A DNA stretch of 64,000 bases, from assembly GCA_033764095.1 (NCBI GenBank), contig JANRJF010000034.1, positions 16,549 through 80,548 of the forward strand. Direction: 5' to 3'. Origin of the DNA: Deltaproteobacteria bacterium. GTDB lineage: Bacteria > Desulfobacterota > Binatia > HRBIN30 > CADEER01. The position numbers and the translations under genes were made by a program. Shown piece after piece: positions 480-54,897 of this stretch; position 1 is the stretch's first letter; each line of letters starts with the position of its first letter. Under the pieces are notes generated by a model. It was not told the origin of the DNA and searched no databases. It saw nothing but the letters and a program-made list of their open reading frames with translations.

Positions 480-571
480 GCGATGAGCGATGAGCGACGA
501 GCGATGAGATTCCAAGCCAGTGGATGCCCGCGCCCCCAACACCAGGCCCTCATCGCTCGTCGCTCATCGCT
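480..571. repeat. Palindromic element, heptamer family A (GCGATGA/GCGACGA)
   Basis: Left arm gcgatgagcgatgagcgacgagcgatgag, unique core, right arm ctcatcgctcgtcgctcatcgc (reverse complement). Confidence 0.9.
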
Positions 572-623
572 TCCGGGCGCAACTTGACTCGCCACACCCC
601 CACCGTTAGCCACTTGGCGGTAC

Positions 624-1139
624 ATGTCGGGCTGGCTCGCGGCGCGCGTGATCGGCACCTTCCTGGTGCTGATCATGGTCTTCTTCTTCATCCTGACGTG
701 GGACCCGATCCTCAAAGTGGTCGACATCGGCGCCGCGCTGGCGCAGCTGTCGGCCTGGATGAGCTACGGCGTGCTCAAGGTGATCGGCGCCATCGGCGGC
801 TTCCCGGTGCACAAGATGGGGACCATCATGGGATCGGGAAACTTCGAGGTCGACGTGGCGCCGGCCTGCTCCGGCGCGGTGCCGACCAGCATCTACCTCG
901 CCGCCGTATTCGCCTATCCGACCTCGTGGCGAGCGCGCGGCATCGGCACCGCCATCGGCATCGCCGTCATCCAGTTGGTCAACGTCGTCCGCGTCAGCGC
1001 GCTGTTCCTCGTCGGGCTGTTCTTCCACGAGATCTTCCACGACACGCACGTCTACGTGGCGCAGGCGTTGGTGGTCTGCGTCGCCGTGGCGCTGTGGCTG
1101 TACTGGGCCACGCGGTTCGCCGATGTCCCCGCGCATTAG
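624..1139 (+). CDS. xrtH: Exosortase, exosortase H-like single-domain transpeptidase
   Basis: Hydrophobic 171 aa protein with the exosortase Cys-Arg-His triad context: VAPACSG, NVVRV, HVYVAQ. TTGACT -35-like box at 584-589. Confidence 0.8.
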   Translation: MSGWLAARVIGTFLVLIMVFFFILTWDPILKVVDIGAALAQLSAWMSYGVLKVIGAIGGFPVHKMGTIMGSGNFEVDVAPACSGAVPTSIYLAAVFAYPTSWRARGIGTAIGIAVIQLVNVVRVSALFLVGLFFHEIFHDTHVYVAQALVVCVAVALWLYWATRFADVPAH

Positions 1140-1848
1140 GCCGCTGCGCTTCCTGTTGCTGCTGGTCGTCGGACTGGTCGTCACCTACCAGGCGTGGAAG
1201 CCGCTGGCGCCCGCCTACGCGCAGGTGCTGTTGCGCGCCACGCGCGTCGGCCTGTGGCTGACCGAGTTCTCCACCGACCCGAACTGGAGTCACCCAACCG
1301 CGCTGTTCATCGACACGCAGCGCAACCCAACCGGCATCTTCTACCTGCAGACCAAGCTCGGCCTCGCCACCCAACCGCCCGCCGACCAACCGCTGCTCGA
1401 CTGGCTGAAGGCCAACCCGAGCGCGCTGCGCATGGCGCCGCAGGGCATCCCGGCCGAATGGGTGATGGCCAACCTGGTGCTGCTGATCCCGCTGATGCTG
1501 GCGACGCCGGCGCCGACCTGGGGCGTGAAGGCGAAACGGCTGGGATTGGCGCTGGCGATCGCGCTGGTGCTGCAGGTGTTCGACGTCGTGGTGTCGATCA
1601 AGGCGAGCTACGCGACCGCCTTCCCGGGTGCGTTCAACCCCTTCATGACGCGCGTCTACCAGTTCTTCGACGCCTTCGTGCAGAGCTGGGACACGCAGCT
1701 CTTCCCGTTCGTCATCTGGGCCGGCATCCACTTCCGCCAGATCCTGCCGCAGCGCCTGCTGACGCCGGCGACCGGCGAGGCGCAGCGCGCGCCGGCCGCG
1801 CCGGACGGCCTGTCGCGCGCCGAACGCCGCCGCCAGATCCGGCGCTGA
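1123..1848 (+). CDS. Exosortase-associated membrane protein
   Basis: Overlaps the exosortase by 17 nt; multi-TM (NLVLLIPLMLATP..., LGLALAIALVLQV, LFPFVIWA); position and size resemble XrtH-associated partners. Confidence 0.6.
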   Translation: MSPRIRPLRFLLLLVVGLVVTYQAWKPLAPAYAQVLLRATRVGLWLTEFSTDPNWSHPTALFIDTQRNPTGIFYLQTKLGLATQPPADQPLLDWLKANPSALRMAPQGIPAEWVMANLVLLIPLMLATPAPTWGVKAKRLGLALAIALVLQVFDVVVSIKASYATAFPGAFNPFMTRVYQFFDAFVQSWDTQLFPFVIWAGIHFRQILPQRLLTPATGEAQRAPAAPDGLSRAERRRQIRR

Positions 1849-1904
1849 CGGCCGCGAGCGGGAGGCAGTTCCCCGCTCCGCCGCCGCGTGGCATACAGCC
1901 GCGC

Positions 1905-2678: not shown

Positions 2679-2683
2679 GAGCA

Positions 2684-2788
2684 GTGCCGAGCGATCAGCG
2701 ACGAGCGACCGGGAAGTGCCGAGCGATGAGCGACGAGCGATGAGGTATACGCGCGCTTCGCATCGCTCATCGCTCGTCGCTCATCGCT
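2684..2788. repeat. Palindromic element, family A, with duplicated left arm
   Basis: agtgccgagcgat(c/g)agcgacgagcga occurs twice, then catcgctcatcgctcgtcgctcatcgct. Confidence 0.9.
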
Positions 2789-3459
2789 TCCTACTGCTCG
2801 TGATGCTGGCGTCGTGCGGACGCGACAGCGCGCCACCCGCCGCGCCTCCGCACCTCGCCTTCGCCGCCACCGCGCATGATTTCGGTCGCGTCCCGCAGGG
2901 CACCGCGGTCGAGCACGAGTTTCCCTTCGTCAACGACGGCGGCGCGACGCTGAGCATCACCGAGCTGCGCGTCGCCTGCGACGCCGCCGCCGTGCTGGTC
3001 GGTCCCGGCGAGGTGCCACCGGGCGGGCGCGGCGCGGTGCGCGCGCGCTTCGACACCGCCGCGGCACCGGGTGCGCAACAGCGCACGGTGACCGTCTACA
3101 GCAACGACCCGACCCAACGCGCCGTCCTGCTGACGCTGGCCGGCAGCGTCGCACTGGACGCCGCGGCCGAGCCCGCACAGGTGTACCTCGGAACCGTGCC
3201 GCCGGGCGCCGAGCTGGCGCAGAGTGTCGCGCTGCGCGCCGGCAACGATGCGGTGCGCTTTCTCGGCGCCAGCAGCGCGGCGCCGCAGCTCGCCGTGCGC
3301 CTCGCCGACGCGGCCGACGGTCGCGCCCTGCTGATCGGCACCGTCGCCGGCGCGGCGCCCGGTCCATTCACCGCCGTGGTGCGCGTGCACACCACCAGCC
3401 CGACGCGGCCGCTGCTGGAGGTGCCGGTGGCGGGCATCATCGCCGCCCCGACGCCATGA
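2740..3459 (+). CDS. DUF1573-like Ig-fold lipoprotein
   Basis: HDFGRVPQG...F.FVNDG...L.I...C, vPPGgrG.v, TVTVYSNDP; lipobox LASC. Start ATG 2740 lies inside the repeat. Confidence 0.75.
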   Translation: MRYTRASHRSSLVAHRFLLLVMLASCGRDSAPPAAPPHLAFAATAHDFGRVPQGTAVEHEFPFVNDGGATLSITELRVACDAAAVLVGPGEVPPGGRGAVRARFDTAAAPGAQQRTVTVYSNDPTQRAVLLTLAGSVALDAAAEPAQVYLGTVPPGAELAQSVALRAGNDAVRFLGASSAAPQLAVRLADAADGRALLIGTVAGAAPGPFTAVVRVHTTSPTRPLLEVPVAGIIAAPTP

Positions 3460-4382: not shown

Positions 4383-4433
4383 TCGCGTCGTCGAACCCGC
4401 TTCTGGGGCTCAAACCATCGCTGCTTATCGCGC

Positions 4434-4462
4434 GTAGGGGCGCGGCTTGCCGCGGCCCCTAC
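4434..4462. repeat. GTAG-class REP palindrome
   Basis: GTAGGGGCGCGGCTTGCCGCGGCCCCTAC between convergent genes. Confidence 0.75.
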
Positions 4463-4488
4463 GCACGGTGCCAGCGAATCGCCCCTTC

Positions 4489-7430: not shown

Positions 7431-8578
7431 GGCACGTGATCGAGTGCGCCGGTGTGCCGGTGCGCCGGTTTGCCGGTATCGACATTTCTACTTACCGGCG
7501 CACCGGCGCACCGGCGCACCGGCAGACCCTGCTTCCGCTGCTCGCCGCGATCGCGCTTCTCGCCGGCGCGTGCGCCAACCCATCCGACTCGCAGACCATC
7601 GCGACACCGACGGCGGGCAAGGCGGAGGAGACGCTGCAGGTGACGGTGGTGCCGGTGTCGTTCCGGCCGACCAAGCGGCTGTTGAAGTTCGTCGGCACGT
7701 TGTTCGGCAACCAGGAAGTGACGTTGTCGAGCCAGGTCGAGGGGCAGATCGAGAAGCTGTCGGTGGACCTCGGCGACCACGTCACGCAGGGCCAGGTGCT
7801 GGCCGAGGTGGACGACACCAGCGCGCGCGCGCAGCTGCGCGAGGTCGAGGCGCGGCTCGCCAAGGCGCGCGCCGACGAGGCGCGCGGTCGCGAGCTGATG
7901 AAGAGCAACGTCATCTCGCCGCAGGAATACGAGCAGATGCAGACCAACGTCGCGGTCGCCGAGGCGCAGCGCGACGGTATGAACGTGCAGCTGGAGCACA
8001 AGCACGTGCGCTCGCCGCTGACCGGTGCGGTGGTGAAGCGGCTGGTGTCGGTCGGCGAGTACGTGCGACCGGGCACGCCGTTGTTCGACCTGGTGGCCGA
8101 CGATCCGCTCACGCTGCGCGGCGACGTGCCGGAGCGCTTCGCCGACGAGGTCGCGGTCGGCCAGCCGGTGCAGATCAAGGTCGACGCCTACCCCGACGAC
8201 GCGTTCGAAGGGCGCCTGCTGCGCGTCAGCCCGGCGGCCAACGCGGAGAATCGCTCGATCACCGTCGAGGCGGAGGTGCCGAACGCCGACCATCGGCTGA
8301 AACCGGGCTTCTTCTCTGCCGCCAACATCGTCACCCGCGCCGACGACGAAGCGCTGGTGGTCCCCGAGACCGCGGTGGTCACCTTCGCCGGCGTCACCAA
8401 GCTGTTCGTCGTGCGCGACGGCATCGCCTACGAGCGCCACGTGCGCGTCGGCACGCGCGACGACCAGGGCCTGGTCGAGGTCATCGAGGGCCTGCACGCC
8501 GACGAAGTGGTCGCCACCTCCGGCCTCGCCAAGCTCGAAAACGGCATGGCGGTGGCGGTGCGCAAGGGCGACAGCTGA
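7427..8578 (+). CDS. RND efflux membrane fusion (adaptor) lipoprotein
   Basis: GTG overlaps the tetR stop, preceded by GGAGG; lipobox LAGAC; lipoyl halves VEGQIEKLSVDLGDHV.QGQVL and VRSPLTGAV..RLVSVGEYV; LKPGFF. Confidence 0.88.
   Translation: MRHVIECAGVPVRRFAGIDISTYRRTGAPAHRQTLLPLLAAIALLAGACANPSDSQTIATPTAGKAEETLQVTVVPVSFRPTKRLLKFVGTLFGNQEVTLSSQVEGQIEKLSVDLGDHVTQGQVLAEVDDTSARAQLREVEARLAKARADEARGRELMKSNVISPQEYEQMQTNVAVAEAQRDGMNVQLEHKHVRSPLTGAVVKRLVSVGEYVRPGTPLFDLVADDPLTLRGDVPERFADEVAVGQPVQIKVDAYPDDAFEGRLLRVSPAANAENRSITVEAEVPNADHRLKPGFFSAANIVTRADDEALVVPETAVVTFAGVTKLFVVRDGIAYERHVRVGTRDDQGLVEVIEGLHADEVVATSGLAKLENGMAVAVRKGDS
7444..7524. repeat. Palindromic element, octamer family B (GCACCGGC)
   Basis: gtgcgccggtgtgccggtgcgccggtttgccggta ... 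taccggcgcaccggcgcaccggcgcaccggca, inside the 5' end of the adaptor gene. Confidence 0.85.
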
Positions 8579-13599: not shown

Positions 13600-13698
13600 T
13601 CAACGCAGAGTCGCAGAGTCGCGGAGGGCGCGAGATGAGAAGGACGATGAACTCTCGTTTTCTCGGCAATCCTCTGCGCCTCGGCGTCTCTGCGTTGA
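13600..13698. repeat. Palindromic element, family C (CGCAGAG/CGCGGAG)
   Basis: Perfect 11-bp terminal inverted repeat TCAACGCAGAG / CTCTGCGTTGA with internal tandem units. Confidence 0.85.
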
Positions 13699-19610: not shown

Positions 19611-19727
19611 GGCCACGGATTGCACGGAGAAGACCTGGATTACCCGGAGAGAAGAATAAGCCCGGAGCCCGCAAGCCGCCTGCAGGCTCCGTGTAATCCG
19701 TGTCCGGCATCCGTGAAATCCGTGGCC
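19611..19727. repeat. Palindromic element, family D (CACGGAT)
   Basis: ggccacggattgcacgga ... tccgtgtaatccgtg ... atccgtgaaatccgtggcc. Confidence 0.85.
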
Positions 19728-27831: not shown

Positions 27832-27926
27832 TGACCAGTAACCCAGTAACCGGTGACCGGTGACCAGTCCGAACTGGGCGTGTGTCGACAACCGCGGACC
27901 GGTCACCGGTCACCGGTCACTGGTCA
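27832..27926. repeat. Palindromic element, heptamer family E (GGTGACC)
   Basis: tgaccagt...accggtgaccggtgaccagt / accggtcaccggtcaccggtcactggtca. Confidence 0.85.
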
Positions 27927-27938
27927 CGCTCTTGCTCC

Positions 27939-30462: not shown

Positions 30463-30548
30463 GGAACCACGGATGAACACAGATAAGAGAAACGAAGAAC
30501 GGCTCAGAGGTATTTCATCCGTGTTCATCTGTGTTCATCCGTGGTTCC
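30463..30548. repeat. Palindromic element, family D
   Basis: Perfect 22-bp inverted repeat GGAACCACGGATGAACACAGAT (30463-30484) / 30527-30548. Confidence 0.92.
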
Positions 30549-30558
30549 ACCAATTCAA

Positions 30559-31485
30559 ATGACTTCCTCTGTCGTCGTCACGGGAGGGCATACGGGGATT
30601 GGCGGGGCCTGCACGCGGCATCTGGTTGCGGCGGGGTGGCATGTAGTGGTGGCGAGCCGCGATCTCGGGCGGGCACGCCACGAGCTCGGGCCGCTGGCCG
30701 GGCGCGTCGAGCTGCGGCCGCTCGATCTCGACTCGCTCGCGGCGGTGCGCGACTTCACCGAGCTGCTGGTCGCCAGCGCCGCCGATCGGCCGCCGCTGGC
30801 CGCGGTCGTGTGCAACGCCGGCGTGCAGATCGTCGGCGCGCCGGAGCGCAGCGCCGACGGCTTCGAGCGCACCTACGCGGTCAACCACCTCGCCCACTAC
30901 CTGCTCGTCCGTCGCCTGCTGCCGCACCTGGCGACGCCGGCGCGCGTCGTCATGCTCGGCAGCGGCACGCACGACCCGGCACAGAAGACCGGCATCGCGC
31001 CGCCGCGCTACCGCGGCGGTCGCGCGCTCGCCGAGCCGGACACGGAGACGCTCGCCGCCGAGGGGCCGTTGCGCACCGGCCATCGCGCCTACTCGACCTC
31101 GAAGCTGTGCAACATCCTGTTCGCCTACGCGCTGGCCGAGCGCCTGCGCGCCGACGACAGCTCGACCACCGCCAACGCCTACGATCCCGGCCTGGTGCCC
31201 GGCACCGGCCTGGCGCGCCAGTACGGCGCCGCGGCGCGCTTCCTCTTCACCCGCGTCGCGCCCGCCCTGGTGCCGGTCATGAAGCCGTTCTTCCACGCCC
31301 AGACGCTCGACGAGGCCGGCCGCAACCTGGCCCGCATGGTCACCGAGCCGTCGCTCGCCACGGTCAGCGGCAGCTACATCGCCGGCACGACGCCGATCCG
31401 CTCGTCCGAGGAATCCTACGACACCGCCAAGCAGCGCGACCTCTGGGACGAGAGCGAACGCCTGGTGCAGGTTGTTGGTTGTTAG
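30559..31485 (+). CDS. Short-chain dehydrogenase/reductase (retinol dehydrogenase/protochlorophyllide reductase-like)
   Basis: TGGHTGIG, CNAG, VNHLAH, YSTSK, DPGLVPGTGL. Confidence 0.92.
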   Translation: MTSSVVVTGGHTGIGGACTRHLVAAGWHVVVASRDLGRARHELGPLAGRVELRPLDLDSLAAVRDFTELLVASAADRPPLAAVVCNAGVQIVGAPERSADGFERTYAVNHLAHYLLVRRLLPHLATPARVVMLGSGTHDPAQKTGIAPPRYRGGRALAEPDTETLAAEGPLRTGHRAYSTSKLCNILFAYALAERLRADDSSTTANAYDPGLVPGTGLARQYGAAARFLFTRVAPALVPVMKPFFHAQTLDEAGRNLARMVTEPSLATVSGSYIAGTTPIRSSEESYDTAKQRDLWDESERLVQVVGC

Positions 31486-31762
31486 CCTCGAAGTGACGAA
31501 AGGAATTCACCACAGAGGCACAGAGTGCACAGAGTGCACAGAGAGGACGGGGCCCGGCGAGATCAGGCAAGTGGTTCCCGAACCCCACTGCTGATGGCTT
31601 TGACGGGGTTGGCCTGTGTGCGGAGCTGCGGCAGTCCTCCTCTGGGACTCGGTGCCTCTGTGGTGAGTCCTCCTGTCTTTTCAAGGTCGGGTCGGAGGGG
31701 GCGCGGCCGATCGGTTCAGGACGGATCTCACCAACACCCTGACCACCCAACGACCAACAACC
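31470..31762. repeat. Nested palindromic elements: outer GGTTGTT-heptamer arms around an inner family C element (31507-31666)
   Basis: Outer ggttgttggttgtt (31470-31483) / aacgaccaacaacc (31749-31762). Inner perfect 15-bp TIR TCACCACAGAGGCAC with gcacagagt tandem units. Confidence 0.8.
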
Positions 31763-33427: not shown

Positions 33428-33601
33428 TCGATTCCCCCCTTTGATTCCCCCCCTTTGAAAAAGGGGGGCAAGGGGGGATTTTCAGACACTCCCCGCCGAC
33501 AACCGCCGCGCCCGCGCGAGAGCTGCCGCTATGAGCGATAGTCAGAAAATCCCCCCCGACCCCCCTTTTTCAAAGGGGGGGAGCCGAGAGGGGGGAATCG
33601 A
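33428..33601. repeat. Large inverted-repeat element with CCCCCCTTT-AAAGGGGGG hairpin arms (family I)
   Basis: The ~56-bp arm at 33428-33483 is the approximate reverse complement of 33545-33601; each arm is itself a hairpin. Confidence 0.85.
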
Positions 33602-34561: not shown

Positions 34562-34683
34562 TCACCGCAGAGACGCTGAGGCGCGGAGAGCGACTGTTCG
34601 ACCGGCTTGGCCGAGCGAACCTTCCCCCGCGATGCGGGCGAGGAAGGAGTCTGAGCAATGAACGCTCCGCGTCTCCGCGGTGA
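34562..34683. repeat. Palindromic element, family C
   Basis: TIR TCACCGCAGAGACGC / GCGTCTCCGCGGTGA (14/15). Confidence 0.85.
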
Positions 34684-34733
34684 TTCCTTTTGAGGGCTTC
34701 TGCCAAAGAGCCGAGCCGTGCTACGGCCGCCGC

Positions 34734-35630
34734 GTGTCCGGCGAACGCATCGCCTCCGTCACCATCTTTCCCGCCTTCGTCGCGCTGATCGCCGCGCTGG
34801 CGTTGCTGGCGCCGCGCTATGACCTCGGCGCCGCGCTGGGACTGGCGCCGGATCCGCAGCAGCCACTGACTTTCGTCGCGGTGCTCGGCGTGCTCTACGC
34901 GCTGATTGCCGCCGCCGAGCGCTGGCTGCCCTATCGGCGCGAGTGGAACGTCGGGCAGGACGACGCGCGCACCGATGTCGGCCACCTGCTCGTCAACGGC
35001 CTGCTCACCAGCCGCGTCGCCAGCCTGCTGGTCTACGGCATCGGCATCGGCGGCGCGGCCTGGCTGTCGATACGGCTCGGCGTGCAGCTGTGGCCGAATC
35101 ACTGGCCACTCGCGCTGCAGCTGGTGCTTGCGCTGGCGGTGGCGGAGCTCGGCCACTACTGGTTCCACCGCCTGACGCACGAGCGGCCGCTGCTGTGGCG
35201 CATCCACGCCGCGCATCACAGCGCGCCGCGTCTCTACTGGCTCAATGCGACGCGCTTCCATCCGTTCGACCTGTTCGGCCTGATCGTCTGCCAGACGCTG
35301 CCGCTCATCCTGCTCGGCGCCGGCGCGCCGGTGATGGTCGCCTACGGCCTGTTCAGCGGCGCCTACGGCCAACTGCAGCACGGCAACATCGCCGTGCGCA
35401 CCGGGGCGCTGCGCTACGTCTTCAGCACGCCGGAGCTGCACCGCTGGCACCACTCGCCCGACCCGCGCGAGGGCAACACCAACTACGGCGCCGTGCTGAG
35501 CTGCTGGGACGTGCTGTTCGGCACCTTCTTCTATCCAGCCGACCGCCGCTTCCGCGGTCCGGTTGGCATTGCCGATGCGCCGAACTTTCCGCGCCACCTC
35601 GGCGGCCAGCTGCTGTCACCGTTTAGATAG
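34734..35630 (+). CDS. Sterol desaturase/fatty acid hydroxylase family protein
   Basis: His boxes YWFHRLTH, IHAAHHS, RFHP, QHGN, PELHRWHH; NYG...WDVLFGT. Start GTG 34734 is inferred. Confidence 0.9.
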   Translation: MSGERIASVTIFPAFVALIAALALLAPRYDLGAALGLAPDPQQPLTFVAVLGVLYALIAAAERWLPYRREWNVGQDDARTDVGHLLVNGLLTSRVASLLVYGIGIGGAAWLSIRLGVQLWPNHWPLALQLVLALAVAELGHYWFHRLTHERPLLWRIHAAHHSAPRLYWLNATRFHPFDLFGLIVCQTLPLILLGAGAPVMVAYGLFSGAYGQLQHGNIAVRTGALRYVFSTPELHRWHHSPDPREGNTNYGAVLSCWDVLFGTFFYPADRRFRGPVGIADAPNFPRHLGGQLLSPFR

Positions 35631-35735
35631 GCTGTTAGGCTGCTAGGCTGTTGGCTGTTAGGGGGAGAAAAGAGTTTCTGAGAATTTCCAATTTCCGACC
35701 CCTAACAGCCTAACCGCCTAACAGCCTGACAGCCT
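35629..35735. repeat. Palindromic element, octamer family F (CTAACAGC)
   Basis: aggctgttaggctgctaggctgttggctgttagggg ... cccctaacagcctaaccgcctaacagcctgacagcct. Confidence 0.9.
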
Positions 35736-35740
35736 TTCCG

Positions 35741-40905: not shown

Positions 40906-40969
40906 ACCACCACGACACTACGACACGGCGACACAACGTTGCGTCGTGGTGTCGTGGTGTCGTTGTGGT
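40906..40969. repeat. Palindromic element, octamer family G (ACGACACN)
   Basis: accaccacgacactacgacacggcgacacaacg / cgtcgtggtgtcgtggtgtcgttgtggt. Confidence 0.85.
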
Positions 40970-42065: not shown

Positions 42066-42188
42066 CACCGCGGAGGCGCGGAGACGCGGAGAGAGCCGAC
42101 GCCAGATGAGACTTCCGCAATTCGCGTCAGAAGTGTCGCGGAGGGGAAGGCCGGCGATCTCGCCTCTTCATTCCGCGCCTCCGCGGTG
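42066..42188. repeat. Palindromic element, family C
   Basis: Perfect 17-bp TIR CACCGCGGAGGCGCGGA (42066-42082) / 42172-42188. Confidence 0.9.
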
Positions 42189-43043: not shown

Positions 43044-43053
43044 CGTCGGGCGC

Positions 43054-43974: not shown

Positions 43975-44027
43975 TTAACTTGGCTGATCAACGCCGTTCG
44001 CGCGAGAGTGCGTCGACGGCAGGAGGC

Positions 44028-44121
44028 AGCGATGAGCGATGAGCGACGAGCGATGGGCACCCAGCACCGGGCGGCAGCGAACGACGACGTGGCTCATCGC
44101 TCATCGCTCGTCGCTCATCGC
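44028..44121. repeat. Palindromic element, family A, inside the glyA 5' end
   Basis: agcgatgagcgatgagcgacgagcgatg ... gctcatcgctcatcgctcgtcgctcatcgc. Confidence 0.9.
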
Positions 44122-45372
44122 GCTCTCCTCGCCTCGTCCGATCCCGACGTCTTCGCCGCCATCGCCGGCGAGGAGCGCCGCCAGCAGGCGGGCATCGAGC
44201 TGATCCCCTCCGAGAGCGTCACCTACCCGGAGGTGCTGGCGGCGCTCGGCTCGGTGCTCACCGACAAGTACGCCGAGGGCTATCCCGGCCGGCGCTACTA
44301 CGGCGGGCAGACCTACACCGATGCGATCGAGCGGCTGGCGCGCGAGCGCGCCTGTGCGCTGTTCCGCGCCGAGCACGCCAATGTGCAGCCGCTCTCCGGC
44401 TCGCCGATGAACCAGGCGGCGTACTTTGCCTTCTGCCAGCCGGGCGACGCGATCCTGGCAATGGACCTCTCGCACGGCGGCCACCTGACGCACGGCGCGC
44501 CGGTGTCGCACATGGGGCGCGTCTTCCGCTTCGCGCGCTACCGCACCATCCCGGGCGAGCGCGGGCGCATCGACTTCGACGCCGTGCGCGCGCTGGCGCG
44601 CGCGACGCGGCCGAAGATCGTGCTGTGCGGCTACACATCGTATCCGCGCGACTACGACTACGCCGCCTTCCGCGCCATTGCCGACGAGGTCGGCGCCATC
44701 GCCATGGCCGACGTCTCGCACGTCGGCGGCCTGATCGCCGGCGGCGCGCTGGCCAATCCGTTCGACCACGGCTTCGACGTCGTCACCACCACGACGCACA
44801 AGAGCCTGCGCGGCCCACGCGCCGGCATGATCCTGTGCCGCAAGGCGCACGCCGCGGCGATCGACGCCTCGGTGTTCCCCGGCCTGCAGGGCGGTCCGCA
44901 CGTGAACACCATCGCCGGCGTCGCCGTCGCGCTCGGCAAGGCGGCGACGCCGGAGTTCCGCGCCTACGCGCGGCAGGTGCTGGTCAACGCGCGCGCGCTC
45001 GCCGAGGCGCTGCTCGCCGCCGGCTGCAGCCTGGTCACCGGCGGCACCGACAACCACATGCTGGTGCTCGACACGGTGGCCAGCTTCGCCCTCGACGGGC
45101 GCGCCTGCGAAGAGCGCCTCGACGCCATCGGCATCACCACCAACAAGCAGATCATCCCCGACGATCCGCGCCCACCGCTGCGCCCGAGCGGCATCCGCAT
45201 GGGCACGCCTGCCGCCACCGCGCGCGGCATGGGCGAGGCCGAGATGCGTCAGCTCGCGGCCTGGATCGTCGCCGCGTTGCGCGACGAGGTCGCGGCCGAT
45301 CGGCTGCACGGCGCGGTGCGCGCCCTTGCCGGCCGGTTCCCGCTGCCGACGCTCGCCGCCACGCCGGACTGA
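44032..45372 (+). CDS. glyA: Serine hydroxymethyltransferase
   Basis: KYAEGYPGRRYYGG, NVQPLSGS, GGHLTHG, TTTTHKSLRGPR (PLP lysine), FPGLQGGPH, GGTDNH, SGIRMGT. AGGAGG 5 nt before ATG 44032. Confidence 0.96.
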   Translation: MSDERRAMGTQHRAAANDDVAHRSSLVAHRALLASSDPDVFAAIAGEERRQQAGIELIPSESVTYPEVLAALGSVLTDKYAEGYPGRRYYGGQTYTDAIERLARERACALFRAEHANVQPLSGSPMNQAAYFAFCQPGDAILAMDLSHGGHLTHGAPVSHMGRVFRFARYRTIPGERGRIDFDAVRALARATRPKIVLCGYTSYPRDYDYAAFRAIADEVGAIAMADVSHVGGLIAGGALANPFDHGFDVVTTTTHKSLRGPRAGMILCRKAHAAAIDASVFPGLQGGPHVNTIAGVAVALGKAATPEFRAYARQVLVNARALAEALLAAGCSLVTGGTDNHMLVLDTVASFALDGRACEERLDAIGITTNKQIIPDDPRPPLRPSGIRMGTPAATARGMGEAEMRQLAAWIVAALRDEVAADRLHGAVRALAGRFPLPTLAATPD

Positions 45373-45428
45373 CTGGACAGGCTGGAAATGGCTCGCCTTC
45401 GCCCGACCGGCGCGCCTATTGGATACGG

Positions 45429-47477: not shown

Positions 47478-47574
47478 ACACGTCGACATCGACTTGATTT
47501 CGTCAAGCAGCAGTTTCCTCTGAATCAAGTCGAATCGTCCGCGTCTGACCGCAACGGCGAAAGGAGGCGGACAC

Positions 47575-49713: not shown

Positions 49714-49742
49714 GCCCCCGCACTGCCAGGACGCGGGTGAAG

Positions 49743-51815
49743 ATGGCAACGAGCACTCTGCTGCTGGCGGCGTCGCTGGCGAGCGCGACGCTCGCCGCGG
49801 CGCAGGAGTGGCAGGATCTCGGCCCCACCGGCGGTGAGATCGCCGACATCCTGCTCGATGATGACGGATGCACATACGCCGTCGGTCGCGGGGTCTTTCG
49901 CCGTGAGCCCGGCGAAGCGCAGTGGGAGCGCCTGCCGCGGACACCCGGACCACACGTCAGCCTTCGGGGCGGGACGCTCTGGAGCACCGGAGGCGACTTG
50001 CACGTCCACCGCAGCGTCGATCGCGGCGCCACGTGGGAAGCGCTCGCCGCGCTGCCGGAGCTGAGCTTCGATGCGCCGGCGGTGGACGCCGCCGATGACG
50101 CGCTGCTGTACGCCGCGACGGTGCAGGCCGACTACGTTCGCCGCCTGTATCGCAGCCGCGACGGCGGCCAGTCGTGGCAGTCGATCCAGCAGGGACTGCC
50201 GGACCACGACTTCAGCTACCACTACCTGCTGCGCGCGGACGTCGAGCACGCCAGCTCGGTGTTCGTCGCCTCGGAGCTCTACGGCGTGTTCGCCAGCAGC
50301 GACGCGGGCGATCACTGGATTGAGGCGAGCACCGGCCTCCCCTGTCCCGGCGTGATCTCCGCGGAAGGCCGCCTCCCGTGTGTGCTGGCGCTGGAACAGG
50401 GACGCGACGGAACGCTCTATGTCGGCGCCGCCGACGGCCGCGTCTACCGCAGCGACGATCGCGCCCGGTCCTGGCAGAGCCCGCATGCCGCGCCGCTCGG
50501 CGTGCAGGTGGTCGCGCTCGCTCTTGCACCGCGCGATCCCGCCAGGGTTCTGGCGGTGACGTCCTCGACCTGGGCCGGCGGGCATCCGCCGGAGTACCAG
50601 GTCCTCCGCTCCAGCGATGGCGGCGCGCACTTCGAAGTGGTCGGCAGCGGTCTGCCGCACGGCGCACTCCACGCGCTGGTCATCGACGCCGAGCACAGCG
50701 ATCGCGCGTATGCGGCGACCGACGACGGCGTGTACGCCAGCGACGACGCCGGCACGTCGTGGATTGCGGTCAACGATGGTCTGTTTGCCACCTGTGTGTA
50801 TGCGCTGGGCGCCGGCGGCGCACCGACGACACTTCACGCCCTCGGCCCACAGCGCTACTGGCGCCGAAGCGGCGCGCCCGAGGGGTGGAGCGAAGGCGAT
50901 ATCTCAATGACCTACCCCGGCTACCGCCGGATCGCGGTTGGCTCCGAGTTGGCCGGCGTCGTCGTCGCACCGGACGGAGAGCGGCTCTATGCGTTCGACT
51001 GGTCGATCGGACCGTTCGCCAGCGAGGACGGCGGACGAAGCTGGGCGCCGCGGTTCGGCGACGGGGGACCTTTTGGCGCCTACGACCTGGCGCTCGACCC
51101 GCATGACGCCGATTCGATTTTCATCGCCACCGATTACGCCGCCATCGCGCACAGCCTCGACGGCGGCCGACACTGGGAACGCGTGCACGACGCCGGCGGC
51201 GGATCGCCCGGCCAGGTGCGCGGCGTCGCCACCGAGGCGCGCAGCGGTCGGGTGTACGCGCTGTACGATCACGCGACTTTCGCGTCGCCGCCGTCAGGCG
51301 CCCACTGGCGGCGCATCGGTCGCGGAATCGAGGGCCGGCAGTTGGATCTCGAGATCGCGCCGACCGATCCGCCGACGCTGTTGGCGCGAACGCCGTACGC
51401 CGTGACGATGCGCAGCCGCGACGGCGGACGCACGTGGCGAGCGCTGCACGTGCCGGGCGAGACCGAGTTCGAACGGACCATCGTCGCCACCGCCTCCGAT
51501 CCGACCGCTCCACACATCCTGTACGGAGTCGCGGGCAAGCAGCTCTACCGCAGTGACGATGCGGGCGGGACGTGGCGCCGCGTCGCAGCGCAGCTGCCGA
51601 CCGGCGTGCAGCAGTTGCAGGTCGATCCGAATGAGCCGGAGCGCATCTACGCTGCCACCTGCGGCGCCGGCGTGCAGCTGCTGGTGCAGGAGCCGGTAAC
51701 CGGGGGCAGGATCGGCGACGGCTGCGCCGTGGTGCCGGCCGATGTCAGTGCGGCGTTGCTCGCCGCGCACGGGTTGGCCATCGGCCTGCTCGGCTGGTTG
51801 CGGGCGCGCCGTTGA
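49743..51815 (+). CDS. Secreted BNR/Asp-box beta-propeller protein, paralog 3
   Basis: Signal peptide; Asp-boxes; tail GDGCAV + TM + RARR. Confidence 0.88.
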   Translation: MATSTLLLAASLASATLAAAQEWQDLGPTGGEIADILLDDDGCTYAVGRGVFRREPGEAQWERLPRTPGPHVSLRGGTLWSTGGDLHVHRSVDRGATWEALAALPELSFDAPAVDAADDALLYAATVQADYVRRLYRSRDGGQSWQSIQQGLPDHDFSYHYLLRADVEHASSVFVASELYGVFASSDAGDHWIEASTGLPCPGVISAEGRLPCVLALEQGRDGTLYVGAADGRVYRSDDRARSWQSPHAAPLGVQVVALALAPRDPARVLAVTSSTWAGGHPPEYQVLRSSDGGAHFEVVGSGLPHGALHALVIDAEHSDRAYAATDDGVYASDDAGTSWIAVNDGLFATCVYALGAGGAPTTLHALGPQRYWRRSGAPEGWSEGDISMTYPGYRRIAVGSELAGVVVAPDGERLYAFDWSIGPFASEDGGRSWAPRFGDGGPFGAYDLALDPHDADSIFIATDYAAIAHSLDGGRHWERVHDAGGGSPGQVRGVATEARSGRVYALYDHATFASPPSGAHWRRIGRGIEGRQLDLEIAPTDPPTLLARTPYAVTMRSRDGGRTWRALHVPGETEFERTIVATASDPTAPHILYGVAGKQLYRSDDAGGTWRRVAAQLPTGVQQLQVDPNEPERIYAATCGAGVQLLVQEPVTGGRIGDGCAVVPADVSAALLAAHGLAIGLLGWLRARR

Positions 51816-51878
51816 CCACCACGGCACGACGACACGACGGCACAACGATCTGCCGTTGTGCCGTCGTGTCGTGGTGGT
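51815..51878. repeat. Palindromic element, family G, between convergent genes
   Basis: accaccacggcacgacgacacgacggcacaacg / cgttgtgccgtcgtgtcgtggtggt. Confidence 0.88.
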
Positions 51879-51881
51879 GAG

Positions 51882-52547
51882 TCAGTCGGGGCGGCCCCAG
51901 TCGACCACCGGCCAGCCGCGACGGCGGGCGGCGCGGCGCAGCTTGGGGTCGGGGTTCACCGCCACCGGGCGGCCGACCACCTCCAGCATCGGCAGGTCGG
52001 CGAACGAATCGGTATAGAACGTCGCCGTCTGCAGGGCGGCGCCGTGCGCGGCGGCGTAGCGCGTCGCCAGCGCCACCTTGCCGGCGCCGTAGCAGAGCGG
52101 CTCGATGGCGCGGCCGGTGTAGCGGCCGTCGGCGTCGATCTCGAAGTGGTTGCAGATGAAGTCGTCGAGGCCGAGCTCGGCGCAGGTGAGCTCGGACATG
52201 TAGTTCGACGACGAGGTCAGCAACACCAGGCGCTCGCCGGCGGCGCGGTGGGCGTCGATCGCGGCGCGCGCGCCGGGGCGGAAGAGCGGCCGCACCGACT
52301 GGCGATAGAAGGCCTGCGCGCGGTCGCGCATCGGCGCCTCCGGCTGACCGGCGACGGTGGCGATGCTGCGCCGGATGGTCTCGTCGATGGCGACGAAGCC
52401 GAGGCTGTAGCGCGCCGCGTAGGTCAGCGCGTGCAGCGCCTGCCAGGTGGTGACCCGACCGGCGGCGAGCTCGGCGCGGATCCACAGCGTCGCCGAGTTG
52501 CGGCTGATCAGCGTCTTGTCGAGATCGAAGAACGCAATCGCAGACAT
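51882..52547 (-). CDS. HAD-IB family hydrolase
   Basis: AFFDLDKTL, LLTSS, YGAGK, FYTDSFADLPML, VAVNPD. Confidence 0.93.
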   Translation of the reverse strand: MSAIAFFDLDKTLISRNSATLWIRAELAAGRVTTWQALHALTYAARYSLGFVAIDETIRRSIATVAGQPEAPMRDRAQAFYRQSVRPLFRPGARAAIDAHRAAGERLVLLTSSSNYMSELTCAELGLDDFICNHFEIDADGRYTGRAIEPLCYGAGKVALATRYAAAHGAALQTATFYTDSFADLPMLEVVGRPVAVNPDPKLRRAARRRGWPVVDWGRPD

Positions 52548-52679
52548 CGGGACTGCTCCGCGCTGCGCGAAGGCATTTGGCGCGGCGCTATTCCCCTACC
52601 AGCCAACCGCCAGGCAGCCCAACCGCCTGCCGTCCTCGCTTGACCTGCCGCGCGGCGCGCGGCAACGGTGCGCGCGGAG

Positions 52680-53768
52680 ATGGCCGACCCCGGGGGCAGC
52701 GCCGCAGTGGCAACCACGCCGGCCGCCGCGCACGGCAAGCCGCGCGGGCTGGCGCCGAGCGTGTGGGAAGGGTGGTCGGACGACCAGCTGCTCGACCTGC
52801 GCCTGTGCGATCTCGGCGTGACCATCCGCGGCACCGAGCTCGACCGCCATATCCGCCAGCTCAACCGCGAGCTGCACGCCGCCGGCATCGTCCGCTTCCG
52901 GCCGTTCTTCTGGCTGTCGGACGAGTGGTTCACGCCCGACGGCGTGCCGGGCGTCGCGGTGCCTTTCTACCTGGCCCATCCGCGCCTGGCGAAGCTGGAG
53001 TTCGCACAGATGCTGGAGGTCGAGGGCGGCACGCCCGAGTGGTGCCTGCGCATCCTGCGCCACGAGACCGGCCACGCCATCGACAACGCCTACGCGCTGC
53101 GCCGCCGCCATCGCCGCCAGCAGCTGTTCGGCCTCTCGTCGAAACCGTACCCCGAGTACTACACGCCGCGGCCGTACAGCCGCAGCTACGTGCAGCACCT
53201 CGAGCCGTGGTACGCGCAGAGTCATCCCGACGAGGACTTCGCCGAGACCTTCGCCGTCTGGATGACGCCCGACTCGCCGTGGCGCACGCGCTACCACGAC
53301 TGGCCGGCGCTGAAGAAGCTCGAGTACGTCGACGGACTGCTGCGCGAGATCGGCCCGCTGGCTCCGAAGCTCACCCATCGGCGCCCGGTCGAGCCGCTGC
53401 GCAGCCTGCGCAAGACGCTGCGCGAGCACTACCGCGAGAAGCGCCAGCGCTACGGCGTCGACCACCCGAACGTCTACGACCGCGATCTGCGCCGCCTGTT
53501 CTCCGACGCGCCGGAGGTACGCGCCAATCCCTCGGCCGCGCAGTTCATCCAGCGCATCCGCAAGGAGGTGCGGGCACGCGCGGCGCGCTGGACCGGCGAG
53601 TACCAGTACACGATCAACCAGGTGATCGACGAGATCGCCAAGCGCTGCAAGGAGCTCAACCTGCGCCTCGCCGTCGCGGCCGAGGAGGCACGGCTGGAGT
53701 TCACCATCTTCGTCGCGGTGCAGACCATGCACTACCTGCACAGCGGGCGACATCGCGTATGGCTGTGA
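52680..53768 (+). CDS. Putative zinc-binding metallopeptidase (Peptidase_Mx-like)
   Basis: LRHETGHA (HExxH) and YAQSHPDEDFAETFAVW, followed by KKLEYV. Confidence 0.85.
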   Translation: MADPGGSAAVATTPAAAHGKPRGLAPSVWEGWSDDQLLDLRLCDLGVTIRGTELDRHIRQLNRELHAAGIVRFRPFFWLSDEWFTPDGVPGVAVPFYLAHPRLAKLEFAQMLEVEGGTPEWCLRILRHETGHAIDNAYALRRRHRRQQLFGLSSKPYPEYYTPRPYSRSYVQHLEPWYAQSHPDEDFAETFAVWMTPDSPWRTRYHDWPALKKLEYVDGLLREIGPLAPKLTHRRPVEPLRSLRKTLREHYREKRQRYGVDHPNVYDRDLRRLFSDAPEVRANPSAAQFIQRIRKEVRARAARWTGEYQYTINQVIDEIAKRCKELNLRLAVAAEEARLEFTIFVAVQTMHYLHSGRHRVWL

Positions 53769-53776
53769 GGTCACGT

Positions 53777-54802
53777 ATGGCGGTGAAGCCGCTGCGCATC
53801 CTCGCGCTGATGCACGAGGACCTGGTGCCGCCGGAGGACGTCACCGGCATCGACACCGCCGAGGCGGACTGGAAGATGGAGTTCGACGTCACCATCACGC
53901 TGAAGAACCTCGGCCACGAGGTGCACAATCTCGGCGTCGGCGGCGACCTCGGCGTCATCCGCAAGGGCATCGACGAGGTCAAGCCGCACCTGGTGCTCAA
54001 CCTGCTGGAGCACTTCCACGGCGTACCGCTGTTCGACCAGAACGTGGTCAGCTACCTGGAGCTGCTGCGCATGCCGTACAGCGGCTGCAACCCGCGCGGC
54101 CTGATGCTGGCGCGCGACAAGGGCCTGTCGAAGAAACTGCTCGCCTACCACCGCATCCCGGTGCCGGACTTCGCCGTGTTCCCGATCGGCCGCGCCGTGC
54201 GGCGGTCGCAGAAGCTGCGCTTCCCACTCATCGTCAAGTCGCTCACCCGCGAGGCGTCGGCCGGCATCTCGCAGGCGAGCGTCGTCGAGGACGAGGAGAA
54301 GCTGCGCGAGCGGGTGCGCTTCATCCACGAGACCATCGGCACCGACGCCATCGCCGAGCGTTACATCGACGGCCGCGAGCTCTACGTCGGCGTGATCGGC
54401 AACCAGCGCCTGGAGGTGTTCCCGGTCTGGGAGCTGCTGTTCACCAAGATGCCGGACGAGCTGTGGCACATCGCCACCGACCGGGTGAAGTGGAGCCGCG
54501 TGTACCAGAAGAAGCGCGGCATCAAGACCTCGGCCTCGAAGCTGCCGGACGGGCTCGCCGAGCACGTCCAGCACCTGTGCAAGCGCATCTACCGCACGCT
54601 CAACCTGAGCGGCTACGCGCGCATCGACCTGCGCCTGGAAGAGAGCGGCAAGGTCTACGTGCTGGAGGCCAACCCCAATCCGCAGCTCGCCTACGGCGAG
54701 GATTTCGCCGAGTCCGCCGAACGCGCCGGCATGGACTATCCGGCGCTGCTGCAACGCATCGTCAACCTCGGCCTGCGCTGGCGGCCGGACCGGGGAGGGT
54801 GA
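53777..54802 (+). CDS. ATP-grasp peptide ligase (D-Ala-D-Ala ligase-like)
   Basis: LELLRMPYSG, RDKGLSK, FPLIVKS..EASAGI, ERYIDGRE, GYARIDLR, VLEANPNP. Confidence 0.88.
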   Translation: MAVKPLRILALMHEDLVPPEDVTGIDTAEADWKMEFDVTITLKNLGHEVHNLGVGGDLGVIRKGIDEVKPHLVLNLLEHFHGVPLFDQNVVSYLELLRMPYSGCNPRGLMLARDKGLSKKLLAYHRIPVPDFAVFPIGRAVRRSQKLRFPLIVKSLTREASAGISQASVVEDEEKLRERVRFIHETIGTDAIAERYIDGRELYVGVIGNQRLEVFPVWELLFTKMPDELWHIATDRVKWSRVYQKKRGIKTSASKLPDGLAEHVQHLCKRIYRTLNLSGYARIDLRLEESGKVYVLEANPNPQLAYGEDFAESAERAGMDYPALLQRIVNLGLRWRPDRGG

Positions 54803-54808
54803 GGGGCA

Positions 54809-54897
54809 AGCGATGAGCGACAAGCGATGAGCAATGAGCGGGTCATCATACTCATCGCTCGTCGCTCATCGCTCATCGCTGATTACTCGTCGCTCGT
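54809..54897. repeat. Palindromic element, family A
   Basis: agcgatgagcgacaagcgatgagcaatgagc ... ctcatcgctcgtcgctcatcgctcatcgct. Confidence 0.9.

Follow-up and report, generated by a model that had tools for sequence, protein, structure and literature searches.

The 17 palindromic loci of the window, that is, the whole stretch of 64,000 nucleotides of DNA from an uncultured soil bacterium that was analyzed, are supported as part of a genome-wide population of related non-coding palindromic repeats, and the major families of this population each share their arms with one gene-bearing cassette of the same genome. We consider it moderately probable that the hairpins are selfish elements, being gene-less miniatures of cassettes that have the same arms and carry one gene of approximately 120 residues.

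Architecture, number, and siting of the hairpins

When the sequence was read directly, all of the 17 loci listed in the original prediction were found to have tandem units of 7–10 bases, a core and a reverse-complement arm, and inverted-repeat and tandem-repeat tools concurred at the loci that each lists. The arms comprise 2–6 such units and have family-specific outer ends, the commonest outer 5-mers being different for each family with no head common to families. For the 14 loci of 150 nt or less, to which folding was limited, a single long hairpin was predicted in every case (z from −3.5 to −11.5), and none of 200 shuffles for each locus folded as well as the real sequence. The outer H element and the elements C31507 and I33428 were too long to fold, and the call for all three was based on the sequence and the inverted-repeat tool.

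Hairpins of family A are present at 480..572, between a divergent gene start and an exosortase-like gene (arms 100% complementary over 23 nt; fold −54.2 kcal/mol, z −8.2), at 2684..2789, where an additional partial left arm accompanies a complete hairpin at 2721-2789 (z −7.5) and the first residues of a lipoprotein signal peptide are encoded by the right arm, at 44025..44124 (z −8.1), where serine hydroxymethyltransferase has an N-terminal extension translated from the right arm, its Pfam match beginning at residue 42 of the ORF, and at 54805..54898 (z −6.6), with a degenerate right arm. The family B hairpin, which has 8-nt units (7444..7523; z −9.4), lies in frame within a lipoprotein gene, separating the ancestral start codon from the core of the signal peptide. 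Family C is represented at 13600..13698 (z −5.5), where a lipoprotein gene has its ribosome-binding site and start codon within the core, with translation covering the right arm, at 34562..34685, with a structured core (z −3.5), at 42066..42188 (z −5.3), and at 31507..31666, where the element is nested in that of family H (31470..31762), whose outer arms at 31470-31485 and 31747-31762 enclose it. Family D occurs in a 9-nt dialect (19611..19727; z −6.2) and in a 10-nt dialect with defined outer termini (30463..30549; z −8.0). The family E hairpin (27832..27927; z −5.9) is located between two co-oriented minus-strand genes, and that of family F (35626..35738; z −11.5) fills the gap between two convergent stop codons, its first left-arm unit containing the stop codon of the upstream gene. 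Both family G hairpins, at 40906..40969 (4-nt loop; z −6.5) and 51815..51878 (z −8.7), are also located between convergent genes. The family I element (33428..33601) has 54-nt arms, which are 83% complementary and contain internal palindromes, and its right arm runs into the 5′ end of an epimerase ORF.

A detector that calls an array of period 7–11 having its reverse complement within 250 nt at an ungapped score of at least 14 identified 435 elements among 4028 arrays in the 6.82-Mb genome, which is a 491-contig draft, 93% complete, and may break at repeats. The arrays with a direct copy instead of an inverted one numbered 87. A first-order Markov control gave 2 elements in 2 Mb, corresponding to about 7 expected per genome, against which at least 435 were found, in agreement with the predicted enrichment of the units in inverted arrangement. 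The detector is conservative, recovering 9 of the 17 window loci and missing family I, which was located by BLAST at about 80–100 places genome-wide. The period was 7 in 194 of the elements, 8 in 188, 9 in 18, 10 in 34 and 11 in 1. The predicted density of one element per 4 kb was appropriate for the window but not for the genome, in which the strict detector found about one per 16 kb.

The siting at gene junctions was borne out, as 376 of the 435 elements (86%) were outside called genes compared with a random expectation of 26%, and only 6 (1.4%) were in gene interiors compared with 54% expected, by a crude gene caller (4557 genes, 73% coding). Arms began a median of 9 nt beyond the upstream stop codon, and at several loci the following gene has both its ribosome-binding site and its start codon in the core. 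Elements and cassettes were also found in frame inside dnaE2 and inside signal peptides. Intrinsic terminators were rejected, since a T-run (four T within 12 nt after the arm) was present in just 22 of the 435 elements.

Cassettes carrying the same arms

According to the original prediction, small GxxExxY, four-helix-bundle and DUF559 genes are often flanked by similar arms, and in this genome GxxExxY, S23p and DUF559 genes indeed carry flanking arms of the hairpin families; filled copies, with an ORF between the arms, were found for the major families. All three S23p genes have such arms, two of them being enclosed by inverted arms and the third having a one-sided arm and a complete hairpin 240 nt upstream. 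Three of the four GxxExxY genes have them and the fourth has an adjacent G hairpin, and both DUF559 genes are flanked, one by family I arms and one by plain inverted repeats. The arms of the cassettes with the S23p four-helix-bundle gene are those of families A and F, with near-matches to B and E; those of the cassettes with the GxxExxY PD-(D/E)XK nuclease gene are those of families C and D; and those of the DUF559 cassette are of family I. With respect to individual window loci, the arms of 19611..19727 also flank the GxxExxY gene at G000:C422, and the arms and termini of 30463..30549 flank both the GxxExxY gene at G000:C231 and a lipoprotein-like ORF (C325). The termini of 31507..31666 are those of the GxxExxY cassette between imuB and dnaE2 at G000:C202, where a family F arm is also found downstream of the S23p gene inside dnaE2. 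A G-type hairpin abuts the GxxExxY gene at G000:C373, and the arms of 33428..33601 flank the DUF559 gene at G000:C388. The sequences captured between arms also include a HisKA fragment, a lipoprotein-like ORF and nested hairpins.

In an order-wide survey, inverted arms with a score of at least 12 flanked 29 of 31 GxxExxY genes and 19 of 31 S23p genes, some of the S23p loci without arms being cut by contig ends, compared with 18 of 250 control small genes. As predicted, no transposase was found in the window among the 38 ORFs scanned with Pfam, and no known transposase family is involved in the elements. A diversity-generating retroelement with the S23p gene as an Avd homologue was rejected because the 93%-complete genome has no RVT_1 match, and the S23p/Avd-like gene is thus not beside a reverse transcriptase. 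All S23p and hairpin copies seen are situated between or within protein-coding genes, not in rRNA; the draft genome has no 23S rRNA gene, and a copy in rRNA may exist outside it.

The arms of the GxxExxY cassettes were also followed beyond this order. Among 79 usable GxxExxY loci from many phyla, arms scored at least 12 in 63 and at least 14 in 52, and the 52 foreign cassettes of the latter set shared a 7-mer with window family C in 42 cases, D in 24, G in 16 and I in 3, and with families A, B, E, F or H in none. Within the order, 5-mers were shared in 271 of 406 pairs of GxxExxY arms versus 210 of 551 pairs of GxxExxY and S23p arms. The arm dialect of GxxExxY is conserved together with its gene across many phyla. 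By a test for the C dialect that required more than 7 matches per genome to a two-unit pattern in related genomes, this number was reached in 28 of 33 genomes with a GxxExxY gene versus 0 of 19 without it, a correlation that is confounded by kinship. The 19 gene-less genomes include five of one genus, four of which carry S23p, and five genomes have the GxxExxY gene and few arrays. The reverse-pattern control for this dialect is non-independent, matching the same arrays in another phase. The conservation of the dialect across phyla and the presence/absence correlation support family-specific coupling to a protein for GxxExxY. Of the prediction that each family is mobilized by its own trans-acting nuclease, the coupling of family and gene is supported for GxxExxY; the word nuclease does not suit S23p, which is a four-helix bundle.

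Descent, turnover, and rival readings

The arm polarity is absolute within families, the strand version of the 5′ arm being identical in every copy of the 14 largest families (e.g., 90 of 90 in family A), and within a family the variant units come in one order and the outer ends agree from copy to copy. The cores, which had been described as unrelated, mostly are: no similarity was found among same-family loops in six C/D-dialect families with clean arms, to which the comparison was confined (0 of 13, 14, 9, 8, 8, and 7 loops). The two exceptions are a sub-terminal motif in 6 of 17 copies of one family and a hairpin within a conserved, dispersed repeat of about 180 nt. Because the cores are unrelated in most families, the whole element is not simply copied. 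The description of the units as all unrelated had to be abandoned, as C, D and G share one dialect and orthologous copies drift between units in situ. Orthologous hairpins change their unit in concert, with compensatory change in both arms; in the hairpin at 7444 compared between G001 and G011, which belong to two genera, 6 of 33 pairs were changed on both sides and kept, with 0 broken, and the hairpin inside dnaE2 has different units in different genomes. Arm mismatches were symmetric (187 of G-T type vs 182 of A-C type), indicating that neither RNA strand is favored.

As for turnover, which was compared at nine junctions with clear flanks, no element was kept in all compared relatives, and the elements are thus not fixed at orthologous sites, as the original prediction requires. 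The same-genus genome G001 has a related element at 4 junctions; 2 further junctions are empty in it and 1 is occupied by another family. The junction of 480..572 is occupied by another family in G011. At 2684..2789, G001 lacks such an element, the empty site of G007 leaves 1 nt between stop and start, and G011 has a 10-mer D-like element. G001 and G011 have orthologous hairpins with altered units at 7444..7523, where G003 and G007 are empty; at 13600..13698, G001 has the same family with an unrelated core and G007 and G011 are empty. The site of 27832..27927 is empty in G011, with a 10-nt spacer, and holds a family F-type element in G007. G001 has a different family at the junction of 30463..30549, and it retains the outer H arms of 31470..31762 with different enclosed content. 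The site of 35626..35738 is empty in G001, with the convergent stops 1 nt apart and the upstream protein 8 codons longer. G011 has a C-like element with another core at a junction comparable to that of 42066..42188; it is empty at 44025..44124, where the family A hairpin of G001 lies some 40 nt more upstream and the start codon is normal. G003 and G011 are both empty at 54805..54898. The comparison of orthologous loci thus revealed the empty sites that had been sought. As for target duplications, no consistent direct repeat was discerned by eye in the flanks inspected, and the relatives are too diverged for base-exact empty sites. No transposition event and no presence/absence polymorphism within a population came to light, the public runs containing just tiny contigs of low share, and this sequence was found in no RNA run. 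There are also ancient residents, as several genera and families share the hairpin and the S23p gene in dnaE2 as well as the GxxExxY cassette that separates imuB from dnaE2. Such copies are very old and stable, not recent insertions, which agrees equally with mobile elements and with residents that are neutral or domesticated.

It is unlikely that the elements are host structural or regulatory hairpins (terminators, stems that stabilize mRNA, or translational switches) that grew in place by slippage and have been kept by selection, immobile and with the genes merely sitting inside. In favor of this reading, the elements closely follow stop codons (median 9 nt), several cores provide the next gene with its ribosome-binding site and start codon, the stems are maintained by compensatory change, the units can alter in place and some elements are conserved across an order. 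However, the same arm, order of variant units and outer ends recur at up to 90 loci with absolute polarity within families, close relatives have empty sites with spacers of 1–10 nt, and one junction may carry different families in sister genomes. The scarcity of T-runs (22 of 435), the elements in frame within dnaE2 and the GxxExxY dialect that accompanies its gene across phyla also argue against host hairpins.

Repair scars, in which both 3′ ends of a double-strand break would be extended with the unit by a family-specific activity, leaving inverted arrays around the DNA that closes the gap and arms synthesized anew at each site, are quite improbable. This would explain why the polarity is fixed, why the cores are unrelated and vary in length, and why assorted small genes have been captured, and the strand symmetry of arm mismatches is in line with it, but addition unit by unit does not predict a specific order of variant units, or non-repeat outer ends, common to the copies of a family. 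Moreover, the 93%-complete genome has no RVT_1 match, no enzyme with such an activity has been identified, and the sole core of apparent local ancestry amounts to a single 8-base match in an unpublished genome. That case is, in light of same-genus G001, better explained as a deletion fusing the arm to the gene.

Proposed model of spread and known systems

In our proposal of gene-less miniatures, the cargo gene would be that of the S23p/23S-rRNA-intervening-sequence four-helix bundle for A, F and the relatives of B and E, that of the GxxExxY PD-(D/E)XK nuclease for C, D and probably G, and that of the DUF559 Vsr-like nuclease for I. The earlier description as non-autonomous mobile elements holds for a related, palindromic and non-coding population, whereas we infer the mobility, as well as the mobilization in trans and its mechanism. 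A DNA-level copying step dependent on the cognate cassette protein, for which the arms may act as tandem binding sites, would give rise to new copies, and these would survive only at harmless spots, namely after stop codons, in the n-regions of signal peptides and in in-frame surface loops. S23p is not known to have catalytic activity. Replication slippage and templated correction between the palindrome arms would keep the arms alike, while the center would be free to break, be repaired and drift, from which the unrelated cores would follow. The predicted stems of 25–35 bp would suit RNase III, of which they would, as RNA, be substrates like the ribosomal intervening sequences.

Such intervening sequences of 23S rRNA were reportedly treated by Ralph and McClelland in 1993, in work cited in the Coxiella paper. 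In Coxiella, the terminal stem of the S23p-bearing intervening sequence is 28 bp long and is cut by RNase III (Warrier et al. 2016, PMC4990558), and the intervening sequence of Coxiella and Leptospira is regarded as a selfish element of unknown mobility. The elements are alike in that terminal inverted repeats forming a long stem surround a small S23p gene; however, those described here are between or inside protein-coding genes, not in rRNA helix 25 or 45, have arms of tandem short units and hundreds of gene-less copies, and include parallel cassettes with GxxExxY or DUF559 in place of S23p.

Heptamer repeats known as STRR occur in cyanobacteria. Convergent heptamer arrays have also been described in Xanthomonas, with 70 and 75 pairs in two genomes, repeat lengths that differ between the two compared species and one G-rich unit treated as a quadruplex former, in a report in which neither S23 nor ‘intervening’ occurs (Rehm et al. 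2015, PMC4692102). Those arrays resemble ours in their tandem units of about 7 nt, mostly intergenic location and closely spaced opposite-strand pairs, but here there are dozens of units, few of which are G-rich, and a link to cassettes.

REP, BIME and REPIN sequences, which have RAYT transposases, are abundant families of extragenic palindromes, regarded as selfish and partly domesticated and each tied to one gene partner (PMC3733652). Our elements share the abundance, the extragenic palindromes in families and the gene-bearing partner, and differ in the lack of a RAYT, in their tandem-array arms and in having other proteins as partners; the arms are not a single 20–40-bp palindrome with a conserved tetranucleotide head, and no Y1 gene is flanked by the repeats. 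MITEs likewise share terminal inverted repeats with a longer gene-bearing element and are non-coding and high-copy, but the internal sequence here is unconserved in most families and the partner is not a known transposase. An origin as REP/REPIN elements with a RAYT transposase, or as MITEs of a conventional insertion sequence, is highly improbable despite the many high-copy, intergenic, palindromic families and one non-window family that is classical-MITE-like (a conserved repeat of about 180 nt in about 25 copies with 84–98% identity), given that the Y1 model (PF01797) had two weak partial matches (about 31 bits, in ORFs of about 480–580 residues; in the one ORF scanned, of 552 aa, the match is confined to residues 450-511, at 28 bits), the flanks show no consistent target duplication by eye, the cores are not conserved and the gene-bearing partners carry S23p, GxxExxY or DUF559.

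Template-switch correction of quasipalindromes and slippage of tandem repeats are established mutational mechanisms, which would yield a concerted unit change in both arms and perfected complementarity, although they explain maintenance only and not the origin or spread. The link between hairpins and cassettes was not found described in the literature searched. New in this study are the conservation of the arm dialect, the co-occurrence of gene and arrays, the concerted change of arms, the absolute polarity and the in-frame siting in dnaE2 and signal peptides. The cassettes are present in many bacterial phyla, and the hairpins look like their gene-less offshoots.

Architecture, number and placement of the elements

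Direct reading of the 17 loci in the window showed at every one of them the plan described in the original prediction, here with 2–6 tandem units of 7–10 bases followed by a core and then by the reverse complement of the units, and the repeat tools agreed wherever they listed a locus. A long single hairpin was predicted for all 14 elements that could be folded under the limit of 150 nt, with z scores of −3.5 to −11.5 and 0 of 200 shuffles as good for any of them; the outer H arms, C31507 and I33428, which exceed this limit, were judged from the sequence and an inverted-repeat tool. The source genome, a draft of 6.82 Mb in 491 contigs with a G+C content of 71%, was then scanned with a detector requiring an array of period 7–11 and its reverse complement within 250 nt, at an ungapped score of at least 14. 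The scan found 435 elements among 4028 arrays, the direct-copy arrays numbering 87. In Markov sequence with the same dinucleotide frequencies, there were 2 detections in 2 Mb, resulting in about 7 expected per genome. Thus, the inverted arrangement is enriched genome-wide well beyond chance, which confirms the observation. The detector recovered 9 of the 17 window elements and wholly missed family I, for which BLAST indicated about 80–100 genomic places, which puts the true number of elements well above 500. The 435 elements comprised 68 canonical units, the biggest families being A (90), F (45) and E (41).

The placement of the elements was evaluated on a gene map from a crude GC3-based caller (4557 genes, 73% coding). 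Outside the called genes lay 376 of the 435 elements (random expectation 26%), with 46 in the first 150 nt of a gene (9.8%), 7 in the last 150 nt (9.7%) and 6 in gene interiors (54%). The distance from the upstream stop codon to the start of the arm had a median of 9 nt over the 435 elements, and the mean G+C content of the arms was 60%, compared with 71% for the genome. A T-run followed the arm in only 22 of the 435, indicating that the elements are not canonical terminators. A Pfam scan of 38 window ORFs indicated ordinary metabolic, transport and envelope genes, with no transposase and no gene of the kind borne by cassettes (copies in which the same arms surround one small gene, S23p, GxxExxY or DUF559) among them, and an Rfam search of the window and three cassette loci gave no match at the gathering score. 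The numerous long tandem repeats reported at 21163–26355 of the window are explained by a protein of 1730 residues encoded there, which Pfam identifies (E-value 2e-138) as almost entirely thrombospondin type 3 repeats.

Turnover, descent and polarity of the arms

The junctions carrying the elements were compared by synteny with those of G001, a genome of the same genus, and of G011, G003 and G007, which belong to the same family. No element was kept in all the relatives compared. Some relatives had empty junctions, with a spacer of 1 nt at F35629 and of 10 nt at E27832, and empty sites were also present at A2684, C13600, A44028 and A54809. An element of another family occupied the junction at A2684 in G011, at E27832 in G007 and at D30463 in G001, and a related element was found in G001 at B7444, C13600, the outer H arms and A44028. 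Thus, neither fixation at orthologous sites nor a lack of genome-wide inverted enrichment, which would have spoken against the mobility originally predicted, was observed. No target duplications were seen by eye in the flanks inspected. In three public DNA runs, where only small, low-share contigs were present, the joints reported proved to be noise from other organisms, and none of them spanned an element as an empty site; no public RNA run was found to contain this sequence. The window block at about 45350–51890, which includes two BNR/sortilin-like genes and has element G51815 at its right edge, is missing from the syntenic position in G011, where a stretch of about 150 nt containing a D-type hairpin is found instead.

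At B7444, all three genomes in which the junction is occupied have a hairpin at the same place, and the differences among them affect two positions of each 8-nt unit throughout both arms. Of 33 pairs compared between G001 and G011, 6 were preserved through changes on both sides, 3 had a change on one side and 0 were broken, indicating that the units evolve in concert in place. The many unrelated units of the original prediction are, therefore, partly a product of such in-place drift. The loops of the elements are 11–123 nt long from the 5th to the 95th percentile (median 42). They were unrelated within the six families of the C and D dialects (shared types of arm unit) with clean arms, so that the unrelated cores of the prediction mostly stand. 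Loop-to-loop BLAST matches in families A and F were considered as shared cores and rejected, as they arise from leftover arm units scored as loop. At C13600, the cores of the source genome and G001 could not be aligned, yet both contain the start codon of the same gene. The idea that the arms flank ancestral local sequence, raised at the glyA junction from one 8-base match in G004, an unpublished genome, was dropped because G001 suggests a deletion fusing the arm to the gene. Arm mismatches genome-wide were mostly transitions and strand-symmetric (187 vs 182), so that the wobble bias considered as a clue to the transcribed strand was absent.

The strand version of the 5' arm was uniform across all copies in each of the 14 largest families, and within a family the copies have their variant units in the same order and the same outer ends, characteristic of that family, which points to copying from founders rather than to independent growth. 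An outer end common to all families was considered and proved weak, the four-base end of several families being present in 46 of the 435 elements against 16 at a control position. The 5' arm was purine-rich in 27 of the 29 families with at least 3 copies, ATG occurred in the 5' arm of 132 of the 435 elements versus 9 in the 3' arm, and the same polarity was found in 46 of 52 foreign GxxExxY cassettes. Because the arms form a palindrome, a gene leaving in either direction has a purine-rich arm upstream and can be read through a stop-poor, pyrimidine-rich arm. Consistent with this, elements are in excess at the 5' ends of genes, the right arms of A2684, B7444, C13600 and A44028 are translated, and cargo genes begin within an arm or immediately downstream of it. 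Such read-through would explain the polarity only in part, the stop asymmetry being variable among families: "self-insulating" arms, with stops in the 5' arm and none in the 3' arm, were true for A, E and the 10-mer D only, and the pattern was reversed in two families, with stops in both arms in F and in neither arm in many others.

Gene-bearing cassettes and their arm dialects

The small GxxExxY, four-helix-bundle and DUF559 genes, named in the original prediction as often flanked by similar arms, do occur with such arms in this genome. Three S23p genes (PF05635/TIGR02436) are present, the first enclosed by family A arms, the second by 8-nt units one base off family B, including the family E unit, and the third with a family F arm downstream; the 23S rRNA gene, where an rRNA-borne copy could have sat, is absent from the draft. 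Among the four GxxExxY genes (PF13366/TIGR04256), three have arms of the 10-mer D, the 9-mer D and the C dialect, respectively, the outer ends of the C-dialect cassette being identical to those of window element C31507, and the fourth adjoins a complete G hairpin. One of the two DUF559 genes lies within family I arms, and the other (G000:C146, L004, about 46336–46653) within plain non-tandem inverted repeats, themselves a dispersed hairpin family. Copies of this plain hairpin are nested in the loops of tandem-arm elements elsewhere (L017, L010). A few other hairpins contain a HisKA fragment, a lipoprotein-like ORF or nested hairpins. Flanking arms with a score of at least 12 were found at 29 of 31 GxxExxY genes, 19 of 31 S23p genes and 18 of 250 control small genes, counts that omit one locus of the unpublished genome and in which contig ends cut some of the S23p loci.

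An S23p cassette lies directly upstream of the apparent start of the replicative dnaE (G000:C139, L021, 1050–1650), and an imuA-like/imuB/dnaE2 operon (G000:C202, L097, 5641–12497) holds four elements. Of these, an S23p cassette precedes imuB and a GxxExxY cassette separates imuB from dnaE2; the other two lie within dnaE2, one being a family F hairpin without a gene, in frame in the helix-hairpin-helix region, and the other an S23p gene. Thus, the cassettes cluster at DNA polymerase genes. The dnaE2 frame (1224 residues) is open across both embedded elements, so that the embedded S23p is read in another frame. Several genera and families have both of these dnaE2 sites filled, and at least in the source genome, G003 and G019, S23p does not interrupt the frame. 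In another relative (G010), the in-frame hairpin at the first site (L107) has expanded to many tandem copies with stops in the dnaE2 frame; either the gene is broken or split, or this is an artefact of the assembly.

The GxxExxY cassettes were also sought more widely, using a 5-sequence alignment as the query and one genome per species. The 80 loci obtained (L149–L228) came from many phyla, including Acidobacteriota, Planctomycetota, Verrucomicrobiota, Chloroflexota, Bacteroidota, Chlamydiota and Omnitrophota, as well as several proteobacterial classes and a cyanobacterium. Their proteins were 52–67% identical to the Binatia ones, and such similarity between very distant phyla suggests that the cassette is often transferred horizontally. 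Inverted arms, with periods of 8–11, were present at 63 of the 79 usable loci at a score of at least 12 and at 52 of 79 at a score of at least 14. Of these 52 foreign cassettes, 42 had arms with at least one 7-mer in common with window family C, 24 with D, 16 with G, 3 with I and 0 with A, B, E, F or H. Within the order, 5-mers were shared in 271 of 406 pairs of GxxExxY arms, 64 of 171 pairs of S23p arms and 210 of 551 pairs between the classes. Thus, the GxxExxY arms represent one conserved dialect and the S23p arms are diverse.

To relate arrays to genes, a degenerate two-unit pattern of the C dialect was counted in 52 genomes of the order and set against gene presence. More than 7 matches were found in 28 of the 33 genomes with a GxxExxY gene (27 of 32 without the unpublished G004) and in 0 of the 19 genomes without it, for which the maximum was 7. 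In one genus, where GxxExxY was absent from all 5 genomes and S23p was present in 4 of 5 (up to 8 copies), each genome had at most 3 matches. Gene presence and array count thus co-vary across genomes that are kin and non-independent, which is a correlation and not a test; the reverse-pattern control is likewise not independent, as it hits the same arrays in another phase. G004 is counted in several tallies, among them those of gene presence and of pattern matches, and no claim depends on it. A non-coding dispersed repeat of about 180 nt (G000:C23, about 10671–10849, and about 25 other places; copies 84–98% identical) holds a tandem-arm hairpin with a unit similar to the arms found at some of the foreign GxxExxY cassettes. 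Several of its copies are located at the ends of contigs, and one copy (in L010) gave no Rfam match.

Proposed mechanism and significance

Gene-bearing and gene-less copies share their arms, the GxxExxY dialect is conserved with its gene across phyla, genes and arrays co-occur, junctions turn over and arms change in concert. The best interpretation of the elements is as miniature relatives, lacking a gene, of the small cassettes bounded by hairpins. The elements are likely to be mobile. In the proposed mechanism, the cassette protein would act on its own arms and the gene-less copies would depend on that protein; the centre of the palindrome, from what is generally known of palindrome instability, would be free to break, be repaired and drift. 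GxxExxY and DUF559 have PD-(D/E)XK folds, and the tandem units, whose core is conserved and whose period varies, resemble iterated binding sites. S23p is a four-helix bundle related to Avd (PMC10053308), with a structural relative in PDB 2GSC; no reverse transcriptase was found in this genome. The stem of the Coxiella intervening sequence, cut by RNase III (PMC4990558), can be likened to the RNA stems here. A bolder proposal, which we put forward tentatively and consider rather unlikely as a whole, is that GxxExxY, DUF559 and S23p each drive their own hairpin-end transposition or homing, with no known transposase family, the arm units being the iterated sites of the protein on an extruded cruciform or single-strand hairpin. 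All of them would then belong to a single, so far unrecognised class of mobile elements spread across bacteria, from which most "heptamer repeat" hairpins would derive and which could reside in frame in essential genes such as dnaE2.

To our knowledge, neither an origin nor a mechanism has been given for the paired heptamer arrays and STRR repeats, which have been on record for decades, and we know of no means of spread for the S23p ribosomal intervening sequences, which have been called selfish. The present analysis adds cassettes with GxxExxY and DUF559, an arm dialect shared across phyla, a correlation between gene presence and arrays, evidence from orthologous sites and a rule of polarity. 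Convergent pairs of one heptamer were described in Xanthomonas (Rehm et al, 2015; PMC4692102), in a text that contains neither "S23" nor "intervening", and PF13366 appears in PMC3424549 as a family of unknown function with multiple transfers. A search of the openly accessible literature by family name or accession returned nothing on arms. PDB 2GSC, the sole solved relative of S23p here, comes from Xanthomonas campestris, where paired heptamer arrays were described.

For annotation, the elements matter in that ordinary genes obtain stop codons, start codons and N-terminal extensions from them; they also occur within the reading frame of a DNA polymerase gene and interrupt draft assemblies. More broadly, tying hundreds of hairpins per genome to three cassette types leads to a hypothesis that can be tested at the bench with a protein and its cognate arms, and that is strengthened by the conservation, across many phyla, of the arm dialect of one cassette type.
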